Positions 3,380 to 61,572 of a DNA stretch of 64,000 nt are shown here, piece after piece (positions within the stretch are counted from its first letter, which is position 1; each line of letters starts with the position of its first letter). This DNA comes from Obrimoposthia wandeli (taxonomy: Eukaryota): contig CDROCS010004457.1 of assembly GCA_977020255.1 (NCBI GenBank), positions 1 to 64,000 of the forward strand. Reading direction: 5' to 3'. The translations under genes and the position numbers were made by a program. Under the pieces are notes generated by a model, which saw only the letters and a program-made list of their open reading frames with translations, did not search any database and had not been told where the DNA came from.

Positions 3380-3413
3380 AACTGCTGGCATTTTCAGGTA
3401 GAAATAGGTAGCT

Positions 3414-3450
3414 GGCGCCGCGAATTTTATTTGCGGCGCCTTTTTCTTTT
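3414..3450 (+). terminator. Rho-independent terminator/attenuator between nosZ and nosD
   Basis: GGCGCCGC-gaattttattt-GCGGCGCC followed by TTTTTCTTTT. Confidence 0.75.
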
Positions 3451-3465
3451 AAACAGAGGTAAGTT

Positions 3466-4836: not shown

Positions 4837-4966
4837 GACGCAGTTTTGAGCAAAGTGATAAAAGATAGCTTCAGAAAATGACAGATGAGCGCAAAGAATA
4901 ATTAACTGCTCAGTACCTACCTAAGAAGTTAACTACTAAGCAAAAGCCCGGCAGCAAGGAACCGCC

Positions 4967-5926: not shown

Positions 5927-6750
5927 AAGCGATTATAACGGTTGCCAAAAAAGAGTTTCGCGATGGTTTACGCAACCGATGGGTACTCTCTATTTGTGTC
6001 ATCTTTGCCGTGCTGGCAATGGGCATCGCATACTTTGGCGCAGCGGCGGCAGGTAAAGTAGGTTTTACTTCTCTATCGACTACAATTGTCAGCTTAGCTA
6101 GTTTAGCGGTGTTTATCATCCCTTTAATTGCGCTGATGCTAGCGTATGACGGTATTGTTGGCGAAGACGAGAGCGGTACTTTGCTATTGTTGATGACTTA
6201 CCCTTTAACTCGCTGGCAGCTTTTATTAGGCAAAATGTTAGGCCAAGGCGCGGTGATGGCGTTTTCTACTACAATAGGTTTTGGCTCCTCTGCCATCATG
6301 ATTGGCTTATTTTCAGCGGATATCAGCTGGCAAGATTTGTTAGCACCCTACGCTATTTTTATTCTCTCATCGGTTTTATTAGGCTGGGTTTTCATCGCAA
6401 TCGCTTACGTTATTAGCGCAAGTGTTAATGAAAAATCCAAGGCGGCAGGGATCGCATTAATAGTGTGGTTCATCTTTGTCTTAGTTTTTGATTTAGGCCT
6501 ATTGGCAGTACTCGTGACTACTCAAGGGGATGTTAATGCCACGTTGTTTCCGTATTTACTGCTACTAAACCCCACTGATATTTTTCGCTTAGTCAATATT
6601 AGCTACTTTGCAGAACAGAACTTAAGCGGTTTAATGGCGATCGCCCAACAAACACAATTTAACCTATACAGCTTAATGTTAGGGCTAGTTGTTTGGCTAT
6701 TGGTACCAATGGGGCTGGCAATGCACATTTTTAATCGCCGAGGTTTATAA
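5923..6750 (+). CDS. nosY: NosY ABC permease
   Basis: Multi-TM; KKEFRDGLRNRW, GEDESGTLLLLMTYP, LLLNPTDIFR; overlaps nosF stop (ATGA). Confidence 0.92.
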   Translation: MKAIITVAKKEFRDGLRNRWVLSICVIFAVLAMGIAYFGAAAAGKVGFTSLSTTIVSLASLAVFIIPLIALMLAYDGIVGEDESGTLLLLMTYPLTRWQLLLGKMLGQGAVMAFSTTIGFGSSAIMIGLFSADISWQDLLAPYAIFILSSVLLGWVFIAIAYVISASVNEKSKAAGIALIVWFIFVLVFDLGLLAVLVTTQGDVNATLFPYLLLLNPTDIFRLVNISYFAEQNLSGLMAIAQQTQFNLYSLMLGLVVWLLVPMGLAMHIFNRRGL

Positions 6751-6751
6751 G

Positions 6752-7288
6752 ATGATTTTTAAAGTCAGTATGAATATAAAACTATGCTTGGCTATAATAC
6801 TGCTACCTTTGCTGATGGCTTGCAATGACAACGAGCAAACAGCAATGGTGCAGCGTGTTGTGGCGATTGAAAATAGTGATGAATGCCATTTATGTGGCAT
6901 GATAATCACCAATTTCCCCGGCCCTAAAGGCCAACTATATACAAAAGGCATCGAGGGGAACCTCAAATTTTGTTCTACCCGCGATATGTTCGCTTTTATT
7001 GTCGACCCTGAAAACCAGCACAACATTCAACAAGTGTTTGTGCACGATATGGCCATCACTCCTTGGGATCACCCTGATAACGAAACCTATGTTGACGCCA
7101 AAGAAGCTTTCTATGTCATCGGGCATAACAAGCAAGGTGCGATGGGCCCCACTTTAGCCAGTTTTGCCAAACGCTCAGATGCACAAGCCTTTACAGCGTT
7201 AGAAGGCGGCAAAGTATTCACCTTTGCTGAGATTGATTTAGCGACCTTAGTTGATATGACAGCACCCTCGCCTTCTAAGAAAGGCTGA
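6752..7288 (+). CDS. nosL: NosL copper chaperone lipoprotein
   Basis: Lipobox LLMAC, CHLCGMII..PGPKGQ, FCSTRDMFAF, GAMGPTL; start at ATG 6752 or 6770. Confidence 0.92.
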   Translation: MIFKVSMNIKLCLAIILLPLLMACNDNEQTAMVQRVVAIENSDECHLCGMIITNFPGPKGQLYTKGIEGNLKFCSTRDMFAFIVDPENQHNIQQVFVHDMAITPWDHPDNETYVDAKEAFYVIGHNKQGAMGPTLASFAKRSDAQAFTALEGGKVFTFAEIDLATLVDMTAPSPSKKG

Positions 7289-46400: not shown

Positions 46401-49400
46401 GGTGCCCGAGGTTATCTCTACATTGGCAGTATCGGTCAGCGTATAGGTCGCAGCGCCTTCGCCTGTAAAGGTAAACAGGTTGGCAACAATATCGTTTGTC
46501 GCTCCCGCGCCGCTTAAAAACCCTGTCCCCGTTAGAACTAACACACCTGTATTGGCATCATAGGCAGATGATGTTAGCGTTGGCACTGCCACATTACTGA
46601 CGGTTAGAGGGTTGCCCGCCGTATCAGAACTATCCCCTACTGTTAGATTAGTATTCCAATCATCGCCAGCCGCTATATTAAAAGCCGTACCATCGGTTGA
46701 AATCATGCCAACCTTATTCATAATCAGCTGAAGGGCGTTTTTATCAGTGACACTTAAGGTTAAAGTAAAGCTGCTCAAATCGGTGCGCTCTACACCAGCA
46801 GTATCGGTTAGGGTGTACGTGACCCCACCCTCACCGGTTAAGGTGATGGTACTAGCATCGATGTCGAGTCCACTTCCGTTTGCTTGAATAGCGCTCCCCG
46901 TTACCGCTAGCGTACCGGTGTCTGCGTTGTAGGTGGCCGAGGTGATTTTCGGATTAATTGATACTGTAATGGTGTTGCTGGCCAAATCAGCGACATTATC
47001 CGCGGCATCTGCACCAATCATCCAATCTTCTGCAGCGGCGAGATTATAGGTAGCCCCCCCACTGGAAGTCGTACCTATTTTATCAAGCTTGCTATCAACA
47101 TGGTTTTTATCAGCACCGCTTAACGTCGCACTAAACGAAGTTGCTGAGGTGATTTCGACATCGGTAGTCGTCGATAAGGTATAGTTACCGCCTTCTCCTG
47201 TGAAGGTGAACATGGATAGATCGACATCATTTGTCACTCCCACTTTTTTAACAAAATGGGTACCTGTTACCACTAATATCCCCGTGTCAGGATCATATAC
47301 AGCTGATGTGATGGTCGGCGTTGCTACGTTGCTGACGGTAATCCCATTGCCAGTCAAATCTGCCACGTTAGTGGCAGCAGGCGACCCTGCTATCCAATCT
47401 TCGGCGGCAGCTAAATTATAGGAGGTAGCCCCTGATGAGCTTGTCCCATCTTTATTGAGCAAGCCATTAATATTGAGTTGATCGGTGGCAGATAAAGTTA
47501 AAGTCGCGGCAGTTGCCGAGGTGATTTCCACATTGGCGGTATTCGTTAAAGTATAACTGCCGCCCTCGCCTGTGAATGTCAATAGGTTTGCAACGATGTC
47601 GTTACTTGGCCCCGCTTGGTTAATAAAGTTGTTACCCGTTAAGATCAGCTGCCCCGTTGCATGATCGTAACTAACACTCGTCAGCGTAGGTACTGCGAAA
47701 TTCGAAACGGTAATGCCATTACCGGTCGCATCAACTACAATGACAGCTACACTAGCCCCTACGGCCCAGTCTTCTGCAGCACTTAGATTATAAACGCTAG
47801 CATCATTAGCCGTTATGCCATCTTTATTCAGCAAAGACTCGACCTTGGTAATATCTGTGCCTGACAGCGTAATTGTGAAAGCAGTGTCGTTGGTGATTTC
47901 AACATCAGACGTAGTACTCAACGTATAGCTTGCTCCGCCTTCACCGGTGAAGCTGAATTTTGAGATATCTATATCATTGGTGGCGCCGCTTTTTTTAAGA
48001 AAATGGGCTCCCGTTACGCTCAAAACGTTACTGCTGTAATCATAAGCAGCTGACGTAATAGTAGGTACTGCAACATTGCTAACCGTGACACCATTAATAC
48101 CAGTATCAGCGATGCCAGCACTAGCCGCAATAAAGCCTGCTGCACCATCCACGTCATAAGTGGTTGTACCTGTAGAGGTAGTACCATCTTTGTTGAATAT
48201 CTGGTTAAGTGCTGCTTTGTCAGCCGCACTTAAACTTAATGATACGCTTGTGGCTGAGTCGATTTCAACATTGGCGGTATTAGTTAAAGTATAAGTTGTT
48301 CCTCCCTCACCTGTTAGGGTGATCTTATTGGCGATAACATCATTGGTGGCACCGGCAGTTGCAGCGAAGTTAGTCCCCGTTAGTAATAATGCTCCACTGG
48401 ATGCGTCGTAGGTCGCGGAAGAGACAGTGGGATCAGAAGAAACAGCTGAAATATCAATATTATCAATTTCTAACGTCGCTGCACTAGGAAAGTCAAATCG
48501 AAGTTCATCGATATTATCAAAAGCAGCACCAAATGTTAATGTTCCATAAGGTCCAGCCCCTCCTACGCCCGTAACAACGTAGGTAATATTTGCTGTTACA
48601 CCATCAGTCCTTAAATTAACAGTTTCTGGTGATACAACGAGAGCTCCATCTCTATAACCTGCAATATTGACAGTCGTGAAATCAATAATACCGCCATTGC
48701 CAATATCGAACGAGTTTAAGTTGAAATTGGTTCCATCTGTTGATTTCATTGAGAAATTTTGTTCTAGAGCACCATCATGGTTTATGATCGCACTTTTATC
48801 CCCTCCTCCATCTTGGTTCAGATTTAGAAGCATTCGACTAGTATCAAAAACCCCCATGTGTACTAGAGAATTTGCTGTAAATGTCCAATCGCCAGCAGGA
48901 ATTGAATTAACATTAAACCCGTCTATAGAACCTAATCCATCAAAGTTTTCGCTATTAATGGCTAGTACATTATTAAAATGAGCGGTTTCAAAGGCGATCT
49001 TTGTATCAATATGACCTAACTTAAAATCTAACTCCCAGTCACCTCCGAGTTTTGATGACCCAGTTAAATTTTTAGATGCAGCAAGAGAAGCATTAGTGAT
49101 ATCAGCAACTTTTCGTACAAAGCTCTCACCAATTGTACCTTTTGCAACATTACATCCATATATTAAAATATTAGCGGTTTCCACCAAAGCCTCGCCCCAG
49201 CTTTGCAGAGCGCTTTGGTATTTAGCTAAGTTACTTTGGCTTAAAGTACTACTTCCTATAAAAAGCTCTGCTTGATTACCATGTGACAGAATATGAACAT
49301 CTTGAATATTTGAATGCTGACTTAACGTTTGAGTAATTTGTTCAACACCATTCTGAGTGGGGTCAAGGATAACGACTTTAGTTCCAGCTCTAACCCCATC

Positions 49401-49478
49401 AATAAGAACTTTGTAGTCAGCTACTTTAGTATCAACAAATAATATAGATTGTTCTATTTCATGACGCATGCTCATCAT
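43416..49478 (-). CDS. Large repetitive adhesin-like protein: DUF4347 + 8 repeats + PT linker + RTX + DUF4214-like tail
   Basis: N-terminal LFVDTKV..HILSHG..ILIYGCNVA..LTG...GGDWELD; GGxGxD repeats; YWVDRLDNGELSR tail. Confidence 0.85.
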   Translation of the reverse strand: MMSMRHEIEQSILFVDTKVADYKVLIDGVRAGTKVVILDPTQNGVEQITQTLSQHSNIQDVHILSHGNQAELFIGSSTLSQSNLAKYQSALQSWGEALVETANILIYGCNVAKGTIGESFVRKVADITNASLAASKNLTGSSKLGGDWELDFKLGHIDTKIAFETAHFNNVLAINSENFDGLGSIDGFNVNSIPAGDWTFTANSLVHMGVFDTSRMLLNLNQDGGGDKSAIINHDGALEQNFSMKSTDGTNFNLNSFDIGNGGIIDFTTVNIAGYRDGALVVSPETVNLRTDGVTANITYVVTGVGGAGPYGTLTFGAAFDNIDELRFDFPSAATLEIDNIDISAVSSDPTVSSATYDASSGALLLTGTNFAATAGATNDVIANKITLTGEGGTTYTLTNTANVEIDSATSVSLSLSAADKAALNQIFNKDGTTSTGTTTYDVDGAAGFIAASAGIADTGINGVTVSNVAVPTITSAAYDYSSNVLSVTGAHFLKKSGATNDIDISKFSFTGEGGASYTLSTTSDVEITNDTAFTITLSGTDITKVESLLNKDGITANDASVYNLSAAEDWAVGASVAVIVVDATGNGITVSNFAVPTLTSVSYDHATGQLILTGNNFINQAGPSNDIVANLLTFTGEGGSYTLTNTANVEITSATAATLTLSATDQLNINGLLNKDGTSSSGATSYNLAAAEDWIAGSPAATNVADLTGNGITVSNVATPTITSAVYDPDTGILVVTGTHFVKKVGVTNDVDLSMFTFTGEGGNYTLSTTTDVEITSATSFSATLSGADKNHVDSKLDKIGTTSSGGATYNLAAAEDWMIGADAADNVADLASNTITVSINPKITSATYNADTGTLAVTGSAIQANGSGLDIDASTITLTGEGGVTYTLTDTAGVERTDLSSFTLTLSVTDKNALQLIMNKVGMISTDGTAFNIAAGDDWNTNLTVGDSSDTAGNPLTVSNVAVPTLTSSAYDANTGVLVLTGTGFLSGAGATNDIVANLFTFTGEGAATYTLTDTANVEITSGTAASLTLSSTDKLLLNGLLNKNGTASDGNTTYNLAVADNWLTGAAASIDISDITNGVTVSNLATPTITSAAFDYATKVLVVTGTNFVAKPGAANDIDLTKLSFTGEGGITHTLTGASVEITAATSFSVTLSDSDALVISGLLNKDGTASDDATTYNLAAADNWLGNAAATTDISDVAGNVITVSNYALPVITSATYSTASGSLVVTGTNFVGKSGATNDVDISTLTLTGEAGSTYTITSAVDIEVTSATEFSLVLIGADKTAVDGLLNKSGTSSSDVTTYNVGGADNWMIAAATSQDIADTIGNGVTVTVPTPTTPTTPTTPTTPTTPTTPTTPSTSSTDIVDGATVITETTTTPDGEVIETLTIEPVIGARVEDGNTQNTDLADVPLQYGNTDKSTVQTTVGLPVGVGLVSVGDNTPSSASEALNKLIALTNNAVSESDNGKENILNGVQKFLDDIATGSDGLVVNSIVLTLADNVVEVPQAIVITGTANDQGSGVREALVIDASNLPPGTQLDLSNVEFAVIIGPATLRGGAGANIVYAGVGSQNIVLGADDDELHGGDGDDIVGSRGGDDLLYGDAGNDRVTGGEGNDHLEGGSGDDILQGGQSDAGTFSFHLTQQGQLRVVFSADYAATAEQAQLDFILNSDKPWTSDARFSFTLTDTPMLDTISRLYLAAVDKLPEVGDMNAILALNYSQTQLATLAYQAYLDQNTGVETQVIEDKVASLMVSIWGEGAVTEQSIQIGVDYITNGGSWVDGFLALSQHDNLRSQLLDNTGGLLLVQDYKLGETGWSSDKGQDTLLGGEGNDTLVGGSGSDILNGGSGFDLVLQVENKADYQFLINAEGLILLHQFTDDLDTLIDVEQIDFADQSLDISGSNLELDNLHSVAALYKLMTLDAPTLAELNSLSAQSVELSALAESLLLDSDYQQQWASMDNSNFFSQLSEDVLGVALQDQDLAYWVDRLDNGELSRTDTFVIAVGVASYQDGLFTGDGLLLG
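45403..45473 (-). repeat. 9-bp tandem repeat encoding (PTT)n linker
   Basis: GGTGTTGT(T/A) x7 plus a partial eighth copy. Confidence 0.95.
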
Positions 49479-49649
49479 CCCTTAGTGGTTACACTGAACC
49501 AGTATCATATATTTTTTTATTTAGCGAATAAAAATATATGATACCTAATAAAATCTATAAAGTTTAACTGCTTAAATACTGCATAGTCAACTAATCTATA
49601 TCCACTTAAGCAGTGATAATTAGATATAAGATGTAAATCTTACACCTAA

Positions 49650-50216
49650 TTGAAAGCGCCTAAATCCTTTGCGATTACATAGAAAAATGGCGCTTAGACA
49701 ATGATGCTATCCGGCTTGGATACGAAAGCCCTATCCACACTGAATCAATGAGTTGAGAATTGAGAATTGAGAATTGAGAATTGTAAGGAATTTCTGGTTA
49801 GGGGGAAATAAAGGTGCTGCTACTAGACACGTAAACCAAATTCGTGATTTTTACGAACTAACAGAAAATGATCTATGTGGATCTAATTTTTTTAGCTCTG
49901 GCTGGCAAAGAGTTCCTGTTTTAGAAAAAACAGAGAAACATATTGATTTAGATTTATTTTCGCCAGTGATTCGAAAGAAAGCATTTGTGCAAATAAAATC
50001 AAGCTCAAGTGCAAATGAGTTTAAAAATTATATCAATATATTCTCAGGGTATGAGCAATATGAGGAGATGCATTTTGTGGTTCATACAACAGCAGATGAA
50101 TTAACAAACATTGCAGACGACGGATTAATGTTAATTTAGTGAACTTGGATAGAATTGATGATTTAGCAATCAATGCAGGTCTTGTAAATTGGTTAATTAC
50201 AAAAAGAACCAATTAA
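49650..50216 (+). pseudogene. Degraded PD-(D/E)xK restriction-endonuclease-like gene (5' boundary approximate)
   Basis: Remnants IRLGYESPIH (~49715), IDLDLFSP..AFVQIKS, and after a break LAINAGLVNWLI; no intact start. Confidence 0.55.
49753..49783. repeat. Heptamer tandem repeat (TTGAGAA)x4
   Basis: TTGAGAATTGAGAATTGAGAATTGAGAATTG. Confidence 0.95.
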
Positions 50217-50270
50217 AAATACCTTTGATTTGGTGCATCATATGAATTTTTATCAATATAACTATTCAGC

Positions 50271-50437
50271 CACTGTGACCATATTGTGCCTTCTGCGGAT
50301 ACCGCAATATTAAATTTGTAAACCGCGCCTGTAGCTCAGGTGGATAGACAGGCGCGGATCCGAAGGAAAACAGACAGATGGGGTAATACTAAAAAATAAG
50401 AAGTGGTGCGCCCGGAGGGATTCGAACCCCCGACCAA
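50271..50437. repeat. tRNA-Arg junction module, copy C (arm motif + inverted tRNA 5' half + 34-bp tRNA 3' fragment)
   Basis: CACTGTGACCATATTGTGCCTTCTGCGGAT..GCGCCTGTAGCTCAGGTGGATAGA..CCGAAGGAAAACAGACAGAT..; 50404-50437 matches the tRNA 3' end at 33/34. Confidence 0.92.
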
Positions 50438-50559
50438 GACGCGGCCTAATAGGAAGGCTCATGTTGCCACTTCTAATGTAGAGACTTGAATTACTCAAGA
50501 AACTTAACCATACTCAGAGCTTACCCACCTCACTAACGCAACGATAAAATACTGTTATA

Positions 50560-51204
50560 TCATTCAGAAGCGAAACACATAAATAAACCAGCACCACCGG
50601 TTTTGGTTAACGCATCTGGTGAACAACCACGTGTATTATGGGCGGCATTCCAAGAAGTATTGCCTCCGCCGTGCCGGTCGTGATGACCTACTGTTGCGCT
50701 TCCCGTTGTGGAACTTGTCCAATTACTACAAGTATTGTCTGCTTCTTCTCTGGGGAAGTAAGCTGTCCCATCAGACATTGATCCTGTCAGAAGATCATGA
50801 CGATTTGGTTTATCGCCGCGGCCATTCACTAATGCTCCATTTTCATCTAATGCCGTTGTCTTAATGATATTAGGCATTAGATGCAGTTCATCTAAATCAG
50901 CCGCAATCAGTATGCCTTTTGCATTGTGCCATGGGCCACTCCCAATGCGATCACGTGCAGAGATTCCACGTTTACCTTTTTCCTGCGTACTTAAATAGGC
51001 ATGCCAAGTTTTATCTATGACTCCTGCCGCTTTTGCAAGCGTTTTACAATGTGCGTCAGCTCCCTCTAAACCTCCTAAATCACCACCGGCACCTGTCCCT
51101 ACACTAGTAACAAAAAAACTCATGGGATGACCTTCTGCGGCGTAAATAGGTTGCGACAACGAAGCAACAGATAAACCCAGAACAAGTATGTTTGAAAATT
51201 TCAT
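50560..51204 (-). CDS. Secreted lectin-like / DUF1554-endostatin-like protein
   Basis: Signal peptide; FFVTSVG..GDLGGLEGADAHC..WHAYLST; CSNWTS; GLFMCFA. Confidence 0.7.
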   Translation of the reverse strand: MKFSNILVLGLSVASLSQPIYAAEGHPMSFFVTSVGTGAGGDLGGLEGADAHCKTLAKAAGVIDKTWHAYLSTQEKGKRGISARDRIGSGPWHNAKGILIAADLDELHLMPNIIKTTALDENGALVNGRGDKPNRHDLLTGSMSDGTAYFPREEADNTCSNWTSSTTGSATVGHHDRHGGGNTSWNAAHNTRGCSPDALTKTGGAGLFMCFASE

Positions 51205-51405
51205 AAACCTACCTCTTTATTTTTTAAGGAAAATATAATAACTAGTTTCAAGGGCTATTATCATACGTCTAATTTTGTGTATTTAATCCTGCCAGCCAAC
51301 GCTTTTTCATCGGTGCTATTCAAGTGGAAATCAGAATCTAATTACTGTATTATTTTTACACAGTATTCAAGTAGATAGCCGTAATTATACGTTCAAGAAG
51401 CATGA

Positions 51406-52260
51406 GTGTATTACATGAGTAATATCAATTTAAAACTAAATAAGCAGAGATCTGAAGAGATTTTCGTACTGGCTATGTCGCTATTGCTAGCTTGGCTGTT
51501 AGCTGCCCATCAAGGCACTCAATTCCAAGGCTATAATATATTCAGCACTTACTTGTACTGGACATGTCGAGTTCTAATTGAACTGGCAATGTTTATTACT
51601 GTATTTATCGCACTCGAAAAATACTTGACTAAATATCTATCTGTTTGGTTGCGCTTTGGGCTGGCAACATTCTGTAGCTTAATTCCGTTTACACTACTTA
51701 TAACAGCTCTTGATTTAATCATTGGACTACCAGAGTTAGGACTCAACGGCCCATCCTTTACTTCCACTTCCAGGGTTCGAGAATTTGGATTTGAGCTGCT
51801 CTTCTTGCTCGACAATCATATTCTCTTCTGTGTACTGATCTTTCTCCCTCGTATTCTGCTACTGCTATCTGGGCACACTATTGTTAAAGAGCCTCTATAT
51901 GAAGCAACGAAAAACTCTGATCAGGTGGAAGTAAGAGATATTCATTACCCAGACACCTTTTTTGATGCTTTTGAACCTCGTCTAACAGGCAACCTCTGCT
52001 GTATGGAAGCACAAGAGCATTACATTCAAGTTATCAGCTCAGAAGAATCACGTATGGTATTGCATCGATTTTCAGATGCTGTACGTTTAATGCCGATATT
52101 TCTAGGTATGCAAGTGCACCGTTCACATTGGGTCGCACACTCAGCCGTACAAGAAGTAATTGTTGAAGGACAAAGTATGAAACTAAAACTATCCTGCGGA
52201 AAATTGGTTCCAGTAAGTCGTACTTTCCGTGCTACTGTCGAGAAGAGATATGTTACTTAA
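51406..52260 (+). CDS. Membrane-bound LytTR-domain regulator
   Basis: About 4 TM segments then EAQEHYIQV..QVHRSHWVA..VPVSRTF. Confidence 0.88.
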   Translation: MYYMSNINLKLNKQRSEEIFVLAMSLLLAWLLAAHQGTQFQGYNIFSTYLYWTCRVLIELAMFITVFIALEKYLTKYLSVWLRFGLATFCSLIPFTLLITALDLIIGLPELGLNGPSFTSTSRVREFGFELLFLLDNHILFCVLIFLPRILLLLSGHTIVKEPLYEATKNSDQVEVRDIHYPDTFFDAFEPRLTGNLCCMEAQEHYIQVISSEESRMVLHRFSDAVRLMPIFLGMQVHRSHWVAHSAVQEVIVEGQSMKLKLSCGKLVPVSRTFRATVEKRYVT

Positions 52261-52279
52261 TAATGCAGAGAACTCCCAA

Positions 52280-52428
52280 CTGTGGCCAAATTGTGCCTTC
52301 TACAGATTGCTGGAGCCGCTGTGCACAAATTGTCGTGTAGCTCAGGTGGATAGAATAGTGGGGCCCGAAGGAAAACAGACAGATAGGGGTAATAATAAAA
52401 AATAAGAAATGGTGCGCCTGGAGGGATT
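52280..52428. repeat. tRNA-Arg junction module, copy B (19-bp tRNA 3' fragment at 52410-52428)
   Basis: CTGTGGCCAAATTGTGCCTTC..TGTAGCTCAGGTGGATAGAATAGT..CCGAAGGAAAACAGACAGATAGGG..TGGTGCGCCTGGAGGGATT. Confidence 0.9.
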
Positions 52429-52904
52429 TGAAAAGCATTAATAACTTATTGTTTTATAACTTACCACCTCTATTTTTTTATAAAAGGCCCCACTCTGCAT
52501 ATGTCTCAATTATTTCCTCTCGTTTTTAGCTCAACGAGAATTCCCACTCTGGTTAGTTTGGTTAAATAATTTTTTTTGCTCCAAAGATCTAAAGTTAACA
52601 ACATTGATTACCTATTGAAAACAGCACGAATACGGTCTTTGGGCATTTTTAAACGACCGCAAAATCCTTCAGTAGCTATCAATCAATATCAATAATTTGA
52701 GAGCTATCGGCATTACTATTTTTGGTTTACCTGATGCGAGATTGTAGTTGAGTTCACTCAGGCTTCCCTATACGTCTAATGTCACACCGTAAATTGCCAC
52801 TTCTGTTTAGATACTTGCTTTTGAATCCCAAAGCCTCCACTATTGATAAATCATGGATTGATACTCACGCTTTCTAATTAGTGACTCGTTATAAAGGTTG
52901 TTGT

Positions 52905-53606
52905 ATGTTCAAGATATTTAGATCTTCATTGCTTTTATTAATCTATCCATCCTTACTGTTTGGCGGGCAGACCCTCACGTTTGTACAAATTAGCGCTATT
53001 CCTAGTCAAACGGTCGCGGCTGAGATGTTACGGGTTGCTTACAATAAGATAGGGATATCTATTAAAACAATCAAATACCCAGGCAAAAGGGCTTTAAAGG
53101 AATCAAGTCAAGGGAGAGTCGATGGGGAAGTATATAGAATTCATAAAATTGGCGAAATATACCCTTCTCTTATTAGAGTGCCAACGTCTTTTTATACTGA
53201 TAATGCAGTTGCTTTCAGCAACGGTAATAGTTTTAAAATTAATAGCTGTGATGATTTAAATGACTACTCCGTTGGTATAATAAGAGGAGTGAAGTATGCT
53301 GAAATATGTACTAAAGATGTTGAAAAACTAAACATTGCTGATGACAATGAAACGATACTAAAAATGCTAAATCTAGGTCGATTTGATGTGGTACTTACAA
53401 CAAAGGCAAACGGACTAATGATAGCGAAGAAGTTAAATTTAACTTCGATAAAACCAATATCTCCCCCTTTAAGAAGGCTGGTTTTGTATCACTATTTACA
53501 TAAAAAAAACTCGCACTTAGTACCTAAGATTGACAAGGTATTACAGGAAATGAGCAAAAGCGGAGAGTTAGAAAGAATAAAAAAAAGAGTATTGAGCAAA
53601 CAATAA
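52905..53606 (+). CDS. Orphan SBP_bac_3-like periplasmic binding protein
   Basis: PGKRALKE..G.VDGE, VGIIRGVKY, MLNLGRFDVVL, LYHYLHKK. Confidence 0.8.
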   Translation: MFKIFRSSLLLLIYPSLLFGGQTLTFVQISAIPSQTVAAEMLRVAYNKIGISIKTIKYPGKRALKESSQGRVDGEVYRIHKIGEIYPSLIRVPTSFYTDNAVAFSNGNSFKINSCDDLNDYSVGIIRGVKYAEICTKDVEKLNIADDNETILKMLNLGRFDVVLTTKANGLMIAKKLNLTSIKPISPPLRRLVLYHYLHKKNSHLVPKIDKVLQEMSKSGELERIKKRVLSKQ

Positions 53607-53976
53607 AATCAAAGTGCCTAATAGCAAGAGAACTATAAGTATTACCAACTTACACTATGTTGTGTAATAGGTATAAATAGCATCTGATTTAAGTGTAAAA
53701 GATTTAGCTTGAGGCTTATGTCCTTTTAGTCCTACTTGAGCTTGCCCTTTGCAACGTAGCTTGCGGATTGCTGCCATTCATCATCACCGACATCTATAAT
53801 GTTATTTTGTATGATGTTGATGATAGGACACAAAAAGATAGGTGTCGGGTAATAAACGGTAAAGAACATATAGGACAACCTAGATTAATGCCCACTATAT
53901 TTAAAATAACCAGTTACTAATTCTTCATATTGATGATTAACCAGTGAATTATAATAATTGGAGAAGTTAAACATAA

Positions 53977-54076
53977 AGGGATTATTCGCTGCGCTCACCC
54001 CTTCGGGGCTATCGTCGCAGGCTCCGATGTGCGTCGCTTCGCTCGGCTCGAACCCGCGGGACTCCTCACCCTCCAG
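53977..54076. repeat. GC-rich palindromic element inserted into a tRNA T-arm fragment
   Basis: GGGATT|ATTCGCTGCGCTCACCCCTTCGGGG...CGCTTCGCTCGGC|TCGAACCC splits GGGATTCGAACCC; ends CCCTCCAG, complementary to CTGGAGGG at ~54145. Confidence 0.7.
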
Positions 54077-54136
54077 TATGATGCTATCGAATATAATGAG
54101 GAGGTGGAATTGAAGATGATATTGATAAATATAACG

Positions 54137-54181
54137 TGGTGCGCCTGGAGGGATTCGAACCCCCGACCAATAGGATCGGAA
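54137..54181 (-). repeat. 45-bp perfect copy of the tRNA-Arg 3' half (anticodon loop to CCA); attR-like
   Basis: TGGTGCGCCTGGAGGGATTCGAACCCCCGACCAATAGGATCGGAA, identical to 59144-59188. Confidence 0.95.
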
Positions 54182-54294
54182 ACCAAAGCCAAGTATCACT
54201 ATCTATCTCCACAAAAAAGAGACCTATCTCTCATAGTATGCCGGTGATAATTTCGCGACCCGTAGGAAGTCAGGCCACAGCATTTAAATAGAAT

Positions 54295-54314
54295 CACTGT
54301 GACCAGTATGTGCC
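54295..54314. repeat. Solo arm-type motif
   Basis: CACTGTGACCAGTATGTGCC, 17/20 identical to 50271-50290. Confidence 0.7.
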
Positions 54315-54357
54315 AGACCAGTTTATAAATTTCCTCGTTAATCAAAGTAAAATACAT

Positions 54358-55131
54358 TTATGCTTGGAACGATATTAAGTAAGCAAGTATAAATAAAAAC
54401 CACCCTGTAAACTTGAAGAAAGAAGCTATGGAGCGATACATCTGCTCATTATCACGCCTATCATAGTGATCAAATAAAACCGTTAACATGACTATAACAG
54501 CGGACATCATGGCAGCAAACATTAAGTGAACCGCCCCTCCTTCAAGATGAACTCCCTTGCCCATATACATATCACCTATAAACAAGCCATAACATGCATA
54601 AGATGACAGAAAAATCGCGTATGCTAAATTAATTATCCTATCCTGCAATGCTACAACATTCGGTAAGTATTTAGACTTTTGGTGCTCCTTCCTTTCAAAG
54701 TTATCAGAAATAAACGCAATTACCTTTTGAGCATCTTTCTCGCTTACTTTAATTAACTTTATTTTAAATATAGCCCCATCACTAGTGAATATTTTTAATA
54801 GTCGGTTCGAATATTCATAATTCAAAACTTTGGAAAAGATAACATTAGCTGTAACAGTGCCATTTCTAATTATTGTTATGCTATTACTCTTTATTTTAAG
54901 CTCGTATGATGATTTATAGAGAGCTATTAATACAAAAACAGCCAACAAAAAGAAATTATCATTTAAAGAATTCGTCTGGTTTAGTACTGATAGGAATAGG
55001 TTGAATGACGCCCAACTAAGTAGTGCAATAATCAAATTTTTACAGAAATACGCCTTCGACCTTCTAATATTTTTATCTATCAGGAGCATTGCTTTATCCC
55101 CCGACATTTCGGATATTGAGAACACCCCCAA
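54358..55131 (-). CDS. Hypothetical membrane protein (start possibly 55089)
   Basis: Two pairs of TM segments around a PH-like soluble stretch; HYDRRDNE. Confidence 0.65.
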   Translation of the reverse strand: MGVFSISEMSGDKAMLLIDKNIRRSKAYFCKNLIIALLSWASFNLFLSVLNQTNSLNDNFFLLAVFVLIALYKSSYELKIKSNSITIIRNGTVTANVIFSKVLNYEYSNRLLKIFTSDGAIFKIKLIKVSEKDAQKVIAFISDNFERKEHQKSKYLPNVVALQDRIINLAYAIFLSSYACYGLFIGDMYMGKGVHLEGGAVHLMFAAMMSAVIVMLTVLFDHYDRRDNEQMYRSIASFFKFTGWFLFILAYLISFQA

Positions 55132-55973
55132 AACTGCTGCCCCGCACGCGCACCTCTACGTGCTTTTCTCTTTATCATATTAGAGCTGCACTTTGGGCAT
55201 TTAGGTGTCTCAGGTGAGCTTACAGTGGGTTCTACCGTATATTGAACCGGAGCCTGCTCCACTCCCTTTAACATCCGATGTAAACCTTGCTGATCTATGA
55301 GCTCAATTTGCTTGTTGTCTGCAAAAGCCTTCGCATCATTGGTGAAACTTCCAGAAGTCACAACAAAACCACCTTCGACGCCAGCCCCCGCAATCACGCC
55401 ATATAATTCTCTAAGTACAGTGACACCCACCTTATTTGTTTTCCAATGCTTGCACTGGACAAAGTACTTCAGCCCATCTTTCCTTAAATGAACATCGATA
55501 CCACCATCTGCTCCGGTATCACCCCCATCTATGACTGAATATCCTTGTTTGCGAAAAGCTTGACCAACGAGTAATTCAAACTGTTGCCAGTTCATATCAT
55601 CAGTTGGCTTTGTAGCTTTGACTATGCTACTTTGGAAGGATTTATTTGGACCTGACGTGGCATACCTTTTAGCTAGTTTCTGACCCTGAAAGGCCTTCAC
55701 TGCCTTTACCACAGTACCAATTACAAACAATATGGGAATGATGTACTGGAACACTCTTGCTGCAGCTTTAAATACCGTACCAGCTATATCTAGCATCGGA
55801 GGTCTACCTTGCTGAATTACCAGTTGGAGATCGCTGCTGGCGTACGTATGTAATGCAATGTAACTAATAACGGCTATCAATAAACTTAGCCAGTAAGGCA
55901 GCATTGATGAGAGTTCAATGAGCACGCTAAACCCTGAATCTTTCTTCCTTGACATATAATCCCTTAAACTCAA
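55080..55973 (-). CDS. Mrr-like restriction endonuclease with N-terminal TMs and topoisomerase-type C4 zinc ribbon
   Basis: FELLVGQAF..GADGGID..VQCKHW..VVTSGSFT; CPKCSSNM..FWGCSQYPKC. Confidence 0.88.
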   Translation of the reverse strand: MSLRDYMSRKKDSGFSVLIELSSMLPYWLSLLIAVISYIALHTYASSDLQLVIQQGRPPMLDIAGTVFKAAARVFQYIIPILFVIGTVVKAVKAFQGQKLAKRYATSGPNKSFQSSIVKATKPTDDMNWQQFELLVGQAFRKQGYSVIDGGDTGADGGIDVHLRKDGLKYFVQCKHWKTNKVGVTVLRELYGVIAGAGVEGGFVVTSGSFTNDAKAFADNKQIELIDQQGLHRMLKGVEQAPVQYTVEPTVSSPETPKCPKCSSNMIKRKARRGARAGQQFWGCSQYPKCRGIKQCS

Positions 55974-56382
55974 TTTTATAGTGAAAGCCGAATACTATAA
56001 GTACTCACTAAATAAAACTACTCTAACGGGATTTTTTAAAAACTTATCGCTCCACAGTAATGACTCTTATAAATTGTATTCAGAGCCCGAATTAAATCCT
56101 AATAGATTTGCTGACGATAAAATTTTCTGTCAATGTCTTAGGTATATGAGCGAATCTTTGACCCGGGTGCACCCTTTGGCGACAAGAAAAATCTGCACAT
56201 ATCCTTATATTTATCGAAACTGATAGCTCTAACCAAGGCTATACTAATCTAAGTATAGTCAAACATTTTTTGAGTTAATCTAACTGTTATTATCCCAACG
56301 ATAGTTTCAAGAAACTAAAGTATTAATACTAAAATGATAGTAAAATAATTGCTTCTTTTTAACTCAATTTAAGCCGCCAGCG

Positions 56383-57249
56383 ATGAATGCTAACCGTCAC
56401 GAACATTTATCCTCAGTAGATATAAACACATATGATTTAGAGCGAGATGGCCTAATAGCCTTGCCAATTGAACAGGCCTTGGAATTATCAGATAGACTAC
56501 AAAATCAACCAGATGCTTATTTAGAAAAACACTTAACCCAATCAAAACCCCACACTAGTTATTTCGACAGCGAAAACCATGCGGCATTCGAAGTTAGTAA
56601 TAAAAGAATCCTCTTTTTAGGTCTACATTTCGCATTAAATAAACGAGAATTAATTGCTCCTATTTTTCGCCCCCAGCTTCTCGATTTTGTGACAACTAAG
56701 AGCGACGAACCGAAGTCGCTAATAAACGTAATTTACTCACTGGATCAGCAACTGATAGACTTACATTGGGCTTATTGTTGAGCGTTTGATCAAAACCCTG
56801 AAACCCTTTGTTATAGTGACTTAGGTGATGTGTGGGACAAAGACTGCTTTTATGCAGAAGCTGTCGAGCAATTTATACAGCAGCAGTGGACAGCCCCACA
56901 CAAAGCAAACATCCTGGCAATACCAGAGCAAGAGCAAATTTTACTCAATAAGCTCAAGACTAAGAAAATTGCACAAATACAATATAGAGTTAAAAGAACT
57001 AGAGGATCTGACAGAGCTGCAATATCTACTCATTGTATTAGTAATCACCAATTAAAAACTTTTAACCTAGACGATCTGTATGATGATCTACATGCACTTC
57101 GACTCGCGAACAATGATATTACTCAAGCTGTACGCATAAAAGCACTAATTGTTGGTCGTCCTCTAGAAGTCGAAAAAACCGACTCTGCGATGAGACCTAT
57201 ACGACATCGTTTAGTAAAATTTAGAGACGAATTAAAGCTTATCAAATAA
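56383..57249 (+). pseudogene. Single hypothetical ORF interrupted by in-frame TGA at 56779-56781
   Basis: ORFs 56383-56781 and 56830-57249 are in the same frame and read HWAYC*AFDQNPETLCYSDLGDVWDK with no other stop. Confidence 0.65.
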
Positions 57250-57600
57250 CATTCCAAAGGTAGATATGCAGGCAGCTTATGGTAATCATAAAAGACAGCA
57301 TTCGGACAGCTTAACAGCCTTGAATACTCCGTATATTAAGGCCGAATAGAATAGCTTAACAAGCTAGTTATTAATTACTAAAATTTTTTGATTAAGAAGA
57401 AAATTCCGCCTGTCGCTAGGGCTTTATCGCCTTTCCACATTCAAAACCCAAGATACAAACGCTGATAATGCTACAAATAGACAGACTAGAATAAATATTA
57501 GCCACCGAGTAGGCTCTAGCATATGCTCATATGGTCGACGTTCATTCAACACTAATAGCAGAAAAGGATGCTATACTAAAAAAAATAGATTAGGTTCGGT

Positions 57601-58350
57601 ATGACGAAAATATCTTTAAAAATATTAGTTACTTTTATTTTTACTCTTCACACTATCACCAGTAATGCTGAAGTATTTACTGCTCACTGTCGTGATTACC
57701 CTCCTGAGTTATCTTTTGATGGCAATAAGTGTGTAGGTGCTATTCCTGATTTAATAACGGATATTGTAAATGAGCTGGGGCATGAAATTTTTTGGAGGGA
57801 AGTGCCTTGGATAAGGTCGCTTAAAATGGCAAAAGATGGAGAAGTTGATTTATTAATTCGACACTCAATGACTGAAGAGAGAAAGCTATTTTTAAGCGCT
57901 ATACCTTATGGTCATTACACTCGAAAGCTTTCTTTTTATAAGTCGGCTGCATTTAATTCAAAAATCAGCTCATATGAAGATATAAAAAAACATAACATTG
58001 GTGCAATTAGGGGCAACTTTTATTCCTCCGCATTTTCAATGCTTGATACACATATACTCACGTTAGTTGAAAATACCGAACAATTACTAGTTATGTTAGA
58101 GCGAGGAAGAATTGATCTAGTAGTGACTTCAAGCTCTCATAAGGAGAAGTTATTTTCGGAGCGTTTCGAAAAAGTCACATTTGTTGATTCGTTTTATAAC
58201 CCTTTATATTTAAGTATCCCTAAAAACTCCAAAGCTACAAGATATTATAAAGATATTGCTAAATTATTGCTGGACTACCGAAAAAGTAAAAAGGTAGATC
58301 AGTACTTTCAAAAATATGGTTTAGACGCACCAAAGCAAATTTTTGAATAG
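57601..58350 (+). CDS. Orphan SBP_bac_3-like periplasmic binding protein
   Basis: DYPPEL, VPWIRSLKMAKDGEVD, IGAIRG, MLERGRIDLVV. Confidence 0.82.
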   Translation: MTKISLKILVTFIFTLHTITSNAEVFTAHCRDYPPELSFDGNKCVGAIPDLITDIVNELGHEIFWREVPWIRSLKMAKDGEVDLLIRHSMTEERKLFLSAIPYGHYTRKLSFYKSAAFNSKISSYEDIKKHNIGAIRGNFYSSAFSMLDTHILTLVENTEQLLVMLERGRIDLVVTSSSHKEKLFSERFEKVTFVDSFYNPLYLSIPKNSKATRYYKDIAKLLLDYRKSKKVDQYFQKYGLDAPKQIFE

Positions 58351-58501
58351 GACTATTAGTTTGGCCACATAATAGAAGACCTAAAGACAGTCTGTTTTTA
58401 AATTGAATTAAAGCGCTTATCGGAGTAGTCTTTTGTTTGAATTAAATATATATCAGAGTGAATATTCCTGATGAGATGGCTCCTTCAAAAGAGCAGTTTT
58501 A

Positions 58502-58912
58502 ATGAGTGAATTACATCCATGTGAATTTGCAAGCAATATCTATCAAGGAAAACCTCCAATTAACTCAGTGAAAACAGATGAGTTTATAAAGCAATGTCGA
58601 ACATCATTAGAAGAAACAAAAGGAATTAATGGAGTCGTTTACATTCTAAGATTCGAAAATTTAGCCCCAAGATTATAAAGGCTATAGTAATGCTCTATAT
58701 ATTGGTGAAACAAAATATGATGTATGGAACAGACACAACGTAAAAGTGATGTGAATAATTTTTGGCAGGTATACGAGCATACAATTCGAACTTATGGCTC
58801 AATTTTTATAGATGTATATACAACTTCAAAACATAAAGAAATTGAGAAAAAACTTCTTTCTTAATATTTTAAAATCCATAAAGAGCTGCCTCCAATGAAT
58901 AGAAAGGGTTAA
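58502..58912 (+). pseudogene. Degraded GIY-YIG-like nuclease
   Basis: Across frameshifts and stops: GVVYILR..ALYIGETK..EIEKKLL*YFKIHKELPPMNRKG*. Confidence 0.6.
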
Positions 58913-59019
58913 TGGGAGCATTAAGTATTATTCATAACAAGTGTGCCTAATTACAGTACGTGTAGATCACGAAATGGAAGACAGCAATCGTCGTTATATA
59001 AGGTAATTCAAATCAGCTA

Positions 59020-59143
59020 CTGTGACCACATTGTGCCTTCTGCGGATTGACGGAGTCGCAGAGCACAAAACCGCGCCTGTAGCTCAGGTGGATAGAATAG
59101 TAATCTCCGAAGGAAAACATACAGATAGGACAAAAAACAGAAG
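59020..59143. repeat. tRNA-Arg junction module, copy A (abuts the intact tRNA)
   Basis: CTGTGACCACATTGTGCCTTCTGCGGAT at 59020; 59073-59110 is 33/38 identical to the tRNA 5' half but on the opposite strand. Confidence 0.92.
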
Positions 59144-59220
59144 TGGTGCGCCTGGAGGGATTCGAACCCCCGACCAATAGGATCGGAACCTACTACTCTA
59201 TCCAGCTGAGCTACAGGCGC
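59144..59220 (-). tRNA. tRNA-Arg(CCG)
   Basis: GCGCCTG/CAGGCGC acceptor plus ACCA; D-loop AGCTGGATA; stem GTAGG/CCTAT around TTCCGAT; T-loop TTCGAAT; 77 nt. Confidence 0.96.
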
Positions 59221-59251
59221 ATCTTGCGCAGTGATTTTTTTGCGCTGCGGT

Positions 59252-59280
59252 ATATTACCTAGCAACGTATCTTCTGTCTA
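59252..59280 (-). promoter_or_regulatory. Sigma70-type promoter of the tRNA
   Basis: Minus strand TAGACA-17 bp-TAATAT followed by GC-rich discriminator ACCGCAGCGC. Confidence 0.65.
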
Positions 59281-59690
59281 TGTATTGCAGTCGATGATTT
59301 GAATTTGTTTAAATTTCTTCTATTCTGCTACAACCGTATATCCGATATCGCTGAATTGGTAATAAACGCGTTAATAAACAGTCAGGATCTAAATAGTAAT
59401 AAAAACTATTTGCCTTGTTAAGTAATTTTAGCAAGGTTGCCAATGTGTGTTTTGGACCGCGGTAGATATTATTCAATTTTTTCACTAATCTACGAGCAGT
59501 TTTGCATATTCGTTATGCTAATTTACTAGTATACTTGCCTCATTTAAATAATAACCCCACAGCACACGGGGTAATAACTTTGATGATTGCAGGTTTTAAA
59601 TCTGTTCATCGCTATTAAAGAGATTGCTAGATAGCCTTTTTACCGCTGTGATAGACAATCCGTAATACTATGACTTACGAGGCCACTGAC

Positions 59691-60113
59691 GTGAATATAA
59701 CTTTCAAATTAGTATCAACTGCGAGCGCTATCGCTTTAAGCTTACTTTTATCTTTAAACATCAATGCAGCTACTTCAACAGAGCGAATAGCTGAGCGCAT
59801 TAAACCTATCGGCCAAGTTTGTATGGAAGGTGATGACTCTTGCGGTAGCGCAGCTGCGGCAGTTGTTGCAAGTGGACCTGCTAGAACGGGCGAAGAAGTT
59901 TATACAACCAAGTGCGGTTTATGCCATGCAGCAGGCGTATCGGGTGCCCCTAAATTTGGTACTGCTGACTGGGCGGATCGCGGTGATATCGATACGCTAC
60001 TAGCGACAGCTATTTCAGGTATCAATGCCATGCCTCCAAAGGGTTTGTGCACTGATTGTAGCGATGATGAACTAAAAGGCGCTATCGAGCACATGATAAA
60101 CAGCGCTCCTTAG
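59691..60113 (+). CDS. Cytochrome c5
   Basis: ERIKPIGQVC, CGLCH haem motif, GINAMPPKGLCTDC; GTG start after GAGG (or ATG 59670). Confidence 0.92.
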   Translation: MNITFKLVSTASAIALSLLLSLNINAATSTERIAERIKPIGQVCMEGDDSCGSAAAAVVASGPARTGEEVYTTKCGLCHAAGVSGAPKFGTADWADRGDIDTLLATAISGINAMPPKGLCTDCSDDELKGAIEHMINSAP

Positions 60114-60129
60114 GCCGTTTTCTGCTTAC

Positions 60130-60152
60130 AAAGGCAGCTTAGGCTGCCTTTT
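60130..60152 (+). terminator. Intrinsic terminator
   Basis: AAAGGCAGC-TTAG-GCTGCCTTTT. Confidence 0.8.
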
Positions 60153-60418
60153 GTATTTTTGGGAGCTGTAAAAAGCATTTTCTACAGATCTTACACTCCT
60201 GGCTATTTTGGCGTTGATAATCTGTAAACAGCCCTCTTTATTATTTTTCCCCTCTTCTCTTTACCTTATTCCACCCTATTTTTATCCATTCAAAGTAACC
60301 CGCCCTGCTAGCATTGCAAAGCTTTGCATTTATCCTGTATAAATAATATTCACTACTATACTCACTTTCGCTAGCGAGATATTTTAGTGGATAAAACGAT
60401 TTAAAATAATAAGTATAT

Positions 60419-61375
60419 ATGGGTGCTATTATGTTGAAGAAGCCTGCTATACCTGCGCAAATACTGACTCGCTGGCAGCGTTTAGTCGATATTATGGGCA
60501 AAGTCACCGATACTCCCGCAGCTTTGATTACCCAAGTGCATACGCAAAGTATTGAGATGTTAGTGGCGAGCCAAGCCCATTCAAACCCTTATCACGAGCA
60601 CGAACTAAGCCCAAGGTTTTGTGGATTGTATTGCGATAAAGTAGTTGCTCAACAGCAGCCATTATTGGTCAATAATGCCGCAGACGAACCCCAGTGGCGT
60701 AACAATCCAGACATGATTCACAGCTTATCATTTTACTTAGGTTATCCCCTGCGATGGCCCGATGGAGAGCCTTTTGGCACTTTATGCGTATTAGATAACA
60801 AAGATAATTTACGTGCAAAAAAATACCGCGATTTAATAGAAGAGTTTCAATGTATTGCCAATGAAGATCTAGCATTGATTTGGGCGCAACATAATCAACA
60901 ACACGAGCGCTTGGTTTTAGAGCAAGTATTAGATCAGCAGCGCACAAAAATTGCAGAGCGCGCCAATGATTTAGCCGAAATTAATACCGCTATGCGAGTA
61001 TTGTTAAAACATACTGATCAAGACAGAAATAGCGTGAAATACGAAGTACTTGAAGAGGTTAAACATTTACTAAAACCTTGGCTTAATAAGCTAGAGCGCT
61101 CAGGTTTAAACCGTGAACAAAAACTTTACTTATCCAGAGTTAAAGAGCACTTACTGGTTACACGGGATGCCTCACAAAAATTTTACTGCCAATTAACCGC
61201 CATGGAGCAGCAGGTTGCAAACGCAATCGGCAATGGCTTATCAAGTAAGGCGATTGCGAAGAAGATGTATTTAGAGAAAAGTACCATTGATTTTCACCGC
61301 CGCAATATTCGCCAAAAATTGGGCTTAGTTAGCAGCAAAGTGAACTTAAAGCAGTTTTTATTAAACGCAAAGTAA
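60419..61375 (+). CDS. GAF + LuxR-HTH transcriptional regulator
   Basis: WQRLVD..GLYC..YLGYPLRWPDGEPFGTLCVLD; LTAMEQQVA..GLSSKAIA..TIDFHRRNIRQKLG. Confidence 0.88.
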   Translation: MGAIMLKKPAIPAQILTRWQRLVDIMGKVTDTPAALITQVHTQSIEMLVASQAHSNPYHEHELSPRFCGLYCDKVVAQQQPLLVNNAADEPQWRNNPDMIHSLSFYLGYPLRWPDGEPFGTLCVLDNKDNLRAKKYRDLIEEFQCIANEDLALIWAQHNQQHERLVLEQVLDQQRTKIAERANDLAEINTAMRVLLKHTDQDRNSVKYEVLEEVKHLLKPWLNKLERSGLNREQKLYLSRVKEHLLVTRDASQKFYCQLTAMEQQVANAIGNGLSSKAIAKKMYLEKSTIDFHRRNIRQKLGLVSSKVNLKQFLLNAK

Positions 61376-61572
61376 TACCCTCAAGTTAGACCTAACCGTT
61401 AAAAATAGGGGGCAATCCCCTTATTTATCCCCCAATACTCCCCATTTGCATCGTCACTAATTTATTCAATGATAAAGGCTGCTTTAAAGCGCTTCGTTTT
61501 GGCTAAGTGCGTTGAAGCAATAGTCTCAGGTTGACATTTTCCTCTACAGATTTAAATTATCGGGAGTACCGT

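Follow-up and report, generated by a model that had tools for sequence, protein, structure and literature searches.

Integrase islands at a tRNA-Arg(CCG) gene and their inverted copies of the tRNA half contributed by the host

Mobile DNA lands in tRNA genes more often than anywhere else, and in the textbook picture attP brings along nothing but the fragment needed to repair the interrupted gene. The stretch analysed here (positions 1–64,000 of contig CDROCS010004457.1, GenBank assembly GCA_977020255.1, Obrimoposthia wandeli; hereafter the window) raises the question of why a tRNA gene should be accompanied, just beyond its 3' end, by an inverted copy of its own 5' half. An earlier note, made from the letters alone, had described this copy as matching 33 of the first 38 nt of a minus-strand tRNA, had placed it 33 bp beyond the CCA and within one of three similar modules, and had set it apart from ordinary att duplications.

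This description was reproduced. The single tRNA found by ARAGORN in the 64-kb window is tRNA-Arg(CCG) at 59144–59220 on the minus strand, and the 38-nt inverted repeat joins 59073–59110 (plus strand) with 59183–59220 at 87% complementarity (33/38 matches), the gap between CCA and copy being 33 nt (59111–59143). With the tRNA and the three modules set aside, the next-best 38-nt match anywhere in the window, on both strands, is 22/38. The sister copies at 52331 and 50325 score 29/38 and 26/38, respectively, against tRNA positions 1–38 (positions are numbered sequentially through the 77-nt gene); the first 23 nt of the third copy match at 22/23, and the mismatch at position 16 is common to all three modules. 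The flipped copy is longer than the 38 nt of the earlier note and reaches through the host leader to the −10 box: 59057–59070 and 59236–59249 match at 12/14, and the linker of the window matches its cognate leader better than 63 other leaders, with 2 of 500 shuffles equally good. Read on the tRNA strand, the module consists of the 3' half, a pyrimidine-rich spacer, the inverted copy, a linker, and tandem repeats, the latter found four times in the window in a single orientation (0.04 expected). The features of the junction and the two sister modules are:

59144–59220, minus strand: intact 77-nt tRNA-Arg(CCG), made up of the host 5' half and a 3' half from the element (attL; ARAGORN)
59188–59182, minus strand: anticodon loop and presumed 7-bp overlap; identity of the attR remnant ends at 59188
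59221–59280, minus strand: leader of the host tRNA and its sigma-70-like promoter, the counterpart to the leader-derived part of the copy
59257–59252, minus strand: −10 box of the host tRNA promoter (9/12 to consensus, at chance level in the scan)
59111–59143, minus strand: pyrimidine-rich 33-nt spacer from CCA to copy, sequence not conserved (0.42)
59073–59110, plus strand: inverted copy of tRNA positions 1–38 (33/38)
59038–59072, plus strand: linker, a degenerate inverted copy of host leader and discriminator (12/14 at 59057–59070), also a local hairpin
59018–59037, plus strand: tandem direct repeats, presumed arm-type sites (P' arm) with putative integrase binding
52279–52432, no strand assigned: second module, with arm repeats 52280–52297, copy 52331–52368 (29/38), and a short 3' remnant 52410–52432
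50272–50448, no strand assigned: third module, with arm repeats 50273–50290, copy 50325–50363, and a damaged 3' remnant 50404–50448

The copy of the third module (50325–50355) has its anticodon part swapped for the complement of its own first 8 nt, likely a product of template switching.

A fourth tRNA 3' remnant, at 54136–54181, ends its identity at the first base of the anticodon loop and has no module attached. Since the fourth set of repeats lies 124 nt from this remnant, the segment 59143–54182 is an islet inserted at the anticodon loop, and two older islets lie behind it. The arm-type repeats, predicted integrase sites, have one orientation at both ends and are specific to the locus. An intact tRNA (59144–59220) and a displaced fragment of the same orientation (54136–54181) thus bracket the islet, whose parts are:

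55080–55973, minus strand: Mrr-type nuclease with a Zn ribbon, cargo common to related elements of both end types
54295–54314, plus strand: far-end arm-type repeats (P arm), 124 nt from the crossover
54136–54181, minus strand: displaced tRNA 3' half (attR), 46 bp identical, without inverted copy
53965–54089, minus strand: RtT-like trailer (Rfam RF00391, 35 bits, below the cut-off of 45)
53679–53777, minus strand: 33-codon N-terminal remnant of a tyrosine integrase, 85% identical to L122:4835–5797

No integrase gene is present in the 64-kb window other than this 33-codon remnant, which belongs to the next islet, and the islets of the window are non-autonomous or dead members of an island family. 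The trailer at 53965–54089 lies away from the module and is at 35 bits, against the 45 required, not a member of RF00391; in the closest relative (G834, stretch L081) an RtT-like trailer is located directly 3' of the tRNA. The module itself gave zero family matches in Rfam at E up to 1. RtT-like trailers (here and at L127:7528–8030) resemble a T-arm with an insert in the T-loop, and L127 has three tandem units.

The neighbouring cytochrome c5 shares 91% identity with its counterpart in an Oceanospirillaceae MAG; named Neptunomonas and Neptuniibacter match at 58–61%. A search with this protein succeeded in locating relatives, where searches with TesA and an ABC protein had not, and gave matches in 101/190 genomes of the G596 family. 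We studied stretches from 79 of the 190 genomes, picked by c5 score or integrase match, i.e., a non-random set in which many genomes are related; the conclusions do not depend on G300, G145, and G043, genomes flagged as unpublished. One stretch (L122) holds a whole element: tRNA, module, cargo, a 320-aa integrase, arm repeats, and attR. The integrase is of the tyrosine type (PF00589, E 4e-30; phrog_1), and its homologs of at least 57% identity occur in 11 genomes of the family, in 10 of them beside tRNA-Arg(CCG) and c5 and in one on a short contig with an att remnant. Nine elements have an unbroken integrase inside and a visible tRNA junction, and all nine carry the copy. The first base of the loop is where identity stops, both in the window and in 10 3' remnants and 8 5' stubs, and the crossover, as read from these identity ends, is at the anticodon loop. 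These whole elements bear out the earlier note in denying an ordinary att duplication and proposing integration at the anticodon loop, and the site is very probably the tRNA-side end of a tyrosine-integrase islet that entered tRNA-Arg(CCG) there.

Integrase homologs of about 40% identity or less lack the inverted half at 15 loci (L141–L146, L236–L244), some of which are cut by contig ends, so that recombination in the wider integrase family can do without it, and an order-wide integrase search at E 1e-55 retrieved 2 of 351 genomes (40–42% identity), both without it. Control of the integrase by CGG codons was considered and dropped, as 3 CGG among 30 Arg codons gave no signal. A terminator-like hairpin with a T-tract is conserved upstream of the integrase gene (L122:2794–2870), followed after approximately 45 nt by internal arm-type repeats; the arrangement often lies about 104 bp before the gene, with the same spacing as that from copy to arm in the module, and is also present in L131–L138, L140, L111, L117, L118, L127, and L128.

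We classed the junctions of 82 stretches into 72 full tRNAs, 8 5' stubs, and 10 3' remnants. An inverted 5' half was found at 19 of the 20 full tRNAs that have arm repeats 135–165 nt to the right. The sole exception (L140) has two stops in its integrase. Among the other 52 full tRNAs, three have an inverted 5' half (two at a stretch end and one with decayed arms), and the remaining 49 score 21 or less within 200 nt; in five of the latter a module is located further on, behind an RtT-like insert.

The survey revealed a second end type. Here the element leaves the host's 5' half behind as a stub at the host promoter and, by bringing a promoter and a 5' half of its own, restores a complete tRNA at its far end. 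This 5'-restoring form occurs in L126, L127, L128, L134, L137, and L139, with the tRNA rebuilt 3–16 kb on; the islet of the window does not have it. All eight full tRNAs with arm repeats 210–230 nt to the left are accompanied by an inverted 3' half, which spans the anticodon loop to CCA and lies upstream of the tRNA promoter (scores 29–56, reached by 0/200 shuffles), the other 64 full tRNAs scoring 22 or less. No inverted 5' half stands behind any of the 8 5' stubs and no inverted 3' half at any of the 10 3' remnants. The 5'- and 3'-restoring elements share one integrase family (69% identity over 100 aa). From these junction sequences the rule is that each element holds, inverted, the tRNA half that is supplied by the host.

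Two end arrangements deserve separate mention. Both end types are combined in one element of G829 (L111), with two full tRNA-Arg(CCG) 7.9 kb apart, each with an inverted half. In L128, the rebuilt tRNA of a 5'-restoring element is directly followed, from position 3942 on, by a P2-like prophage whose integrase, of 399 aa, is a different one.

The copy is conserved unevenly. Pairwise identity among 17 arm-anchored modules is 0.79 for nt 1–24 of the copy and 0.83 for the arm repeats; in the same modules, positions 25–38 reach 0.53, the linker 0.46, and the spacer 0.42. Compared with the cognate host at 21 junctions, identity is 0.82 over tRNA positions 1–24, 0.67 over positions 25–39, 0.67 at the discriminator, 0.66 in the leader, and 0.50 in the −10 box. 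Position 16 is mismatched in 21 of 22 copies, with three different bases; positions 31–32, beside the crossover, are mismatched in more than 80% of the 22, and perfect runs reach 6–18 nt per copy at the longest. This pattern suggests selection that keeps the pairing yet breaks it in the middle of the copy and beside the crossover, which would leave the copy unable to recombine.

The copies also tend to follow their hosts. The linker is not random but similar to the discriminator and leader of its own host as far as the −10 box: against 63 others, the cognate leader comes sixth or better in 16 of 22 cases, three cognate leaders, besides that of L111, rank 42 or worse, and the match beats 495 of 500 shuffles in 9/22 and fails to in 13/22. 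The 3' copies end at CCA and match the host trailer in 0/8. The earlier note had suggested checking covariation with the cognate tRNA allele. Position 29 does agree with the host allele in 19/21, and changes on both sides keep the pairs at leader positions −3 to −1, position 6, and position 29, as well as one pair in the mirror form; but there are exceptions, namely L115 and L118 at position 29, the leader of L150, and the mirror copies of L111, L126, and L127. Such tracking may reflect co-evolution or separate origins in each lineage and fits both alike.

Contigs of four sequencing runs (from two samples at most, one run being possibly the source of the window itself) were compared over 48500–61500, and three had cover. 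A second strain has a module with 26 nt in place of the copy, another has a different anticodon part, and in two runs a LytTR gene is followed by a module like that at 59 kb. The modules are thus shuffled, and distal ones can lose the copy.

What, then, could the copy do? The minus-strand RNA 59220–59010 folds into one long stem that disrupts the cloverleaf (−88.3 kcal/mol, z −6.56, 0/200 shuffles as good); a fold of this RNA was among the checks that the earlier note had proposed. The strand on which the duplex is predicted to be stronger is opposite to the tRNA strand in 16 of 22 5' copies and is the tRNA strand in 8/8 3' copies, and in both forms this is the strand read outward from the element. 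Over positions 1–24, 40 cells favour the opposite strand and 7 the tRNA strand, the junctions being related and the cells not independent; a tally of distinct changes is free of strand bias (14 vs. 11; 12 vs. 8), and RNAalifold gives the two strands equal consensus energies (−37.1 vs. −36.0). Near the module, neither the window nor L122 has an outward promoter that rises above chance level. The first cargo gene is oriented either way in relatives, and a separate intrinsic-terminator-like hairpin is already present upstream of the integrase gene.

Because the partner of the copy is the host-supplied half, the copy of each element can pair only when integrated; the host half being needed, the stem cannot form in the excised circle, on whichever strand. 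The most likely function, to which we give somewhat less than an even chance, is an integration-dependent RNA fold-back crossing the junction. Copy and host partner, once joined by integration, would pair as a long fold-back in a junction-crossing RNA, most likely one read outward from inside the element. The stem might be cut by an RNase III-type activity, or might stall decay or read-through, in the manner of lambda sib except that it would be formed rather than lost upon integration. It could thereby shield the restored tRNA gene and quiet the integrated element, and such an RNA would let the island sense its own insertion.

The best-surviving alternative, possible though rather unlikely, places the role in DNA: the copy would be a protein-binding or pairing handle within the recombination complex, phased to the arm-type repeats. 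With the same modest expectation, such a handle would help the integrase to choose its target or to tell an occupied from an empty site. The distance from copy to arm repeat is 44–47 nt in 17/19 modules, and crossover-to-arm distances cluster at 138–141, 150–154, and 160–163 nt, in helical steps of about 11 bp. The copy is conserved equally to the arms and includes promoter DNA that is not transcribed, and either type of attP would then hold the entire attB sequence. On the other side, the 5' and 3' copies have no common motif except the acceptor stem, so that one protein site would be insufficient; the bases adjacent to the crossover are the least kept; leader tracking favours base pairing over a fixed motif; and the constant distance is partly due to the leader copy filling the gap.

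Should the copy be a functionless scar, which we regard as unlikely, attP would have arisen from a whole inverted tRNA gene beside the core, comparable to that of tRNA-dependent lysogeny, or by capture after reverse integration. The same low weight attaches to the idea that template switching has occasionally refreshed it. The geometry is suggestive, since flipping the piece between the two loop copies would, in both end types, give a whole inverted tRNA gene, and the copy extends to the −10 box, which is what a duplication of DNA should do. Moreover, two unrelated viral attP sites have the same layout (L194, L212), one with a terminator between the parts, and a close strain has a module without the copy (joint 59043–50406). 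A scar, however, should not decay as unevenly as is seen (0.82 for positions 1–24 vs. 0.67 for 25–39) opposite an invariant partner, nor should it match the arm sites in conservation when the spacer has fallen to noise level. Template switching would have repaired position 16, which matches in only 1/22, and the mirror form requires a second such accident.

The first reading of the earlier note, in which the pre-tRNA trailer folds onto its own 5' half and leader or is freed as an antisense RNA, is improbable, and so is the corresponding role in tuning the maturation of tRNA-Arg(CCG) or ending read-through from the host promoter. Trailer pairing is feasible in silico: once 148 nt are transcribed, the predicted hairpin lies about 30 kcal/mol below the cloverleaf, three of the five mismatches in the window are G-U on the tRNA strand, and the leader is covered by the copy. 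Yet this reading fails to cover the data. The discriminator and −10 bases that are copied are absent from the pre-tRNA, widespread A-to-G changes in the copies break pairs on the tRNA strand, no U-tract terminator follows the copy, and in the mirror form, where the copy lies upstream of the promoter, the reading is inapplicable.

A more speculative option, to which we assign little probability, is that the copy encodes a target-finding RNA for the tyrosine integrase. An RNA of the excised circle, having no partner in cis, would pair with the matching half of a transcribed host tRNA gene, i.e., with the opened promoter and template strand in the case of 3'-restoring elements and with the 3' half in the case of 5'-restoring ones; after integration the same RNA would fold on itself and be switched off. 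If true, such a role would account for attP containing precisely the stretch of attB that its core is missing, for the tracking of leader and allele, and for the inability of the copy to recombine.

The second reading of the earlier note, inversion between the two loop copies by the integrase, as an invertible switch or a two-way attP, is largely refuted and has very little probability left. Most copies do reach the anticodon loop, with positions 34–38 kept at 0.73–0.82, and phage homologs of the integrase at 41% identity are annotated as shufflon-type recombinases. Intact inverted sites and both orientations are nevertheless missing: the positions flanking the core are broken in more than 80% of copies, L119, L121, and L122 have lost the loop part, the −10 box of the copy is degenerate (0.50), which would leave a flipped tRNA without a promoter, and the flipped state was observed at 0/8 stubs. 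No strand-changing joint was found in the contigs of the three covering runs, nor was an attP joint, as an excised circle would give, contigs being prone to drop rare forms.

An assembly fold-back artefact can be dismissed, given three diverged copies in the window, X1 contigs that cover the modules without differences, homologs in many genomes, and the different appearance of a true artefact of this kind (L080), as can a split or permuted tRNA, since the halves are on opposite strands and the stems of the copy are broken.

Several known systems resemble these islands in part. The tDNA islands of site A in Islander have, as here, an intact tRNA and a displaced fragment of the same orientation bracketing the island, with anticodon-loop crossover and tandem arrays; to this the present family adds, within the end of the element, the host half copied in inverted orientation. 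According to the Islander paper (PMC4383910), anticodon-centred site A accounts for 2083 of 3919 islands and a 5' fragment for 159 of 3919, and fragments of opposite orientation, 5' fragments downstream, and 3' fragments upstream are rejected as false positives. As opposite-orientation fragments are rejected by design, the layout of the window is filtered out.

Elements that restore the 5' half were reportedly described by Zhao and Williams in 2002; here, unlike in those known elements, both forms are found with one integrase family at one site, each with the other half inverted. In the phages with tRNA-dependent lysogeny, attP is a short core only and a whole phage tRNA gene is located elsewhere, and the link to canonical systems is called unclear (PMC10865867). 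Integration in the anticodon region and an element-borne cognate tRNA sequence outside the core are common to both systems, and such lysogeny is a possible ancestral state; in contrast, the single tRNA of the window is rebuilt at the junction, and the additional piece is an inverted, non-coding half.

Lambda sib is encoded entirely by the phage, and integration separates it from int. It shares with the proposed fold-back, by analogy only, an RNA stem near att whose effect is set by the integration state (PMC6379469); the stem of the islands would differ in needing a host strand and forming only after integration, its cleavage being a proposal. RtT (RF00391) likewise follows the same tRNA at empty sites and the attR in the window, but is a trailer in direct orientation, distinct from the module.

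A literature search over openly available full texts gave no description of inverted host-half copies at att sites. Judging from the loci compared here, tRNA-targeting integrase islands of marine bacteria with mirrored inverted host halves are real, conserved, and more widespread than the earlier note could show, with a mechanism that is proposed. One integrase family seems to mend the same gene from either side while keeping the inverted host half under selection, and the copy might be a sequence-encoded way to tell the integration state or to find the target, a signal that standard island finders discard as noise. Both mirror forms exist with intact integrases, so the question can be addressed with small plasmids. 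The finding is also relevant to the way in which attP sites come by their tRNA fragment, a point called unclear in PMC10865867.

Similar layouts were also sought elsewhere. Three scans of viral sequences for an inverted D-arm behind a T-arm yielded 45 loci, two of which are clear attP-like sites composed of a 3' half, an inverted 5' half, and an adjacent tyrosine recombinase: L194, with a CAT tRNA and a recombinase matching PF00589 only at E 7e-4, and L212, with Thr TGT, a copy that reaches the loop, a terminator-like hairpin between the parts, and a phrog_1 recombinase. Six viral loci have a D-arm match only, which may be chance, and the rest are convergent tRNAs or noise. The first viral pattern gave 11 matches, all ordinary tRNAs, and four further viral scans were empty. 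A GTDB scan yielded 67 loci, including one with an inverted 5' half; this locus (L012, Solirubrobacterales, Arg CCT) has the same layout with no integrase evident in the ORF list. The scan missed every family member found later and is uninformative on rarity. Two loci from a metagenome scan were irrelevant, plasmid BLAST of the module gave no match, and BLAST of the tRNA region returned tRNAs only.

Some further observations concern tRNA genes near such sites. In many tRNA-Arg genes across phyla, the T-arm or 3' end of the gene itself is repeated in inverted orientation within approximately 30 nt downstream (e.g., L013, L015, L017, L018, L022, L034, L046). The native operon of the family is Arg(CCG)-Thr-Asn-Asp (L134, L158, L177, L182). 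tRNA-Thr(TGT) begins right at the end of the arm repeats in L118, L120, L125, L133, L181, L184, L123, and L164; L133 has Thr at both ends, and in L119 a Thr/Asn chimeric tRNA-like sequence follows the module. We gave up the interpretation of the GGTCACAG repeats as a tRNA-Thr leader, since identical repeats occur within elements and at their far ends and are absent from the plain Arg-Thr spacers of L134, L158, L162, L177, and L182.

Elsewhere in the window, frameshifted ORF pieces on the plus strand (58502–58911), which by eye resemble a small nuclease, lie just inside the module. A 2020-aa repeat-rich protein of secreted type (43416–49478), with a 9-nt PTT repeat at 45383–45481, adjoins the end of the islet array. 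Finally, a nitrous oxide reductase cluster is recognized by eye at 1955–7288, its reductase being split into ORFs 1955–2581 and 2903–3379, possibly by a frameshift.
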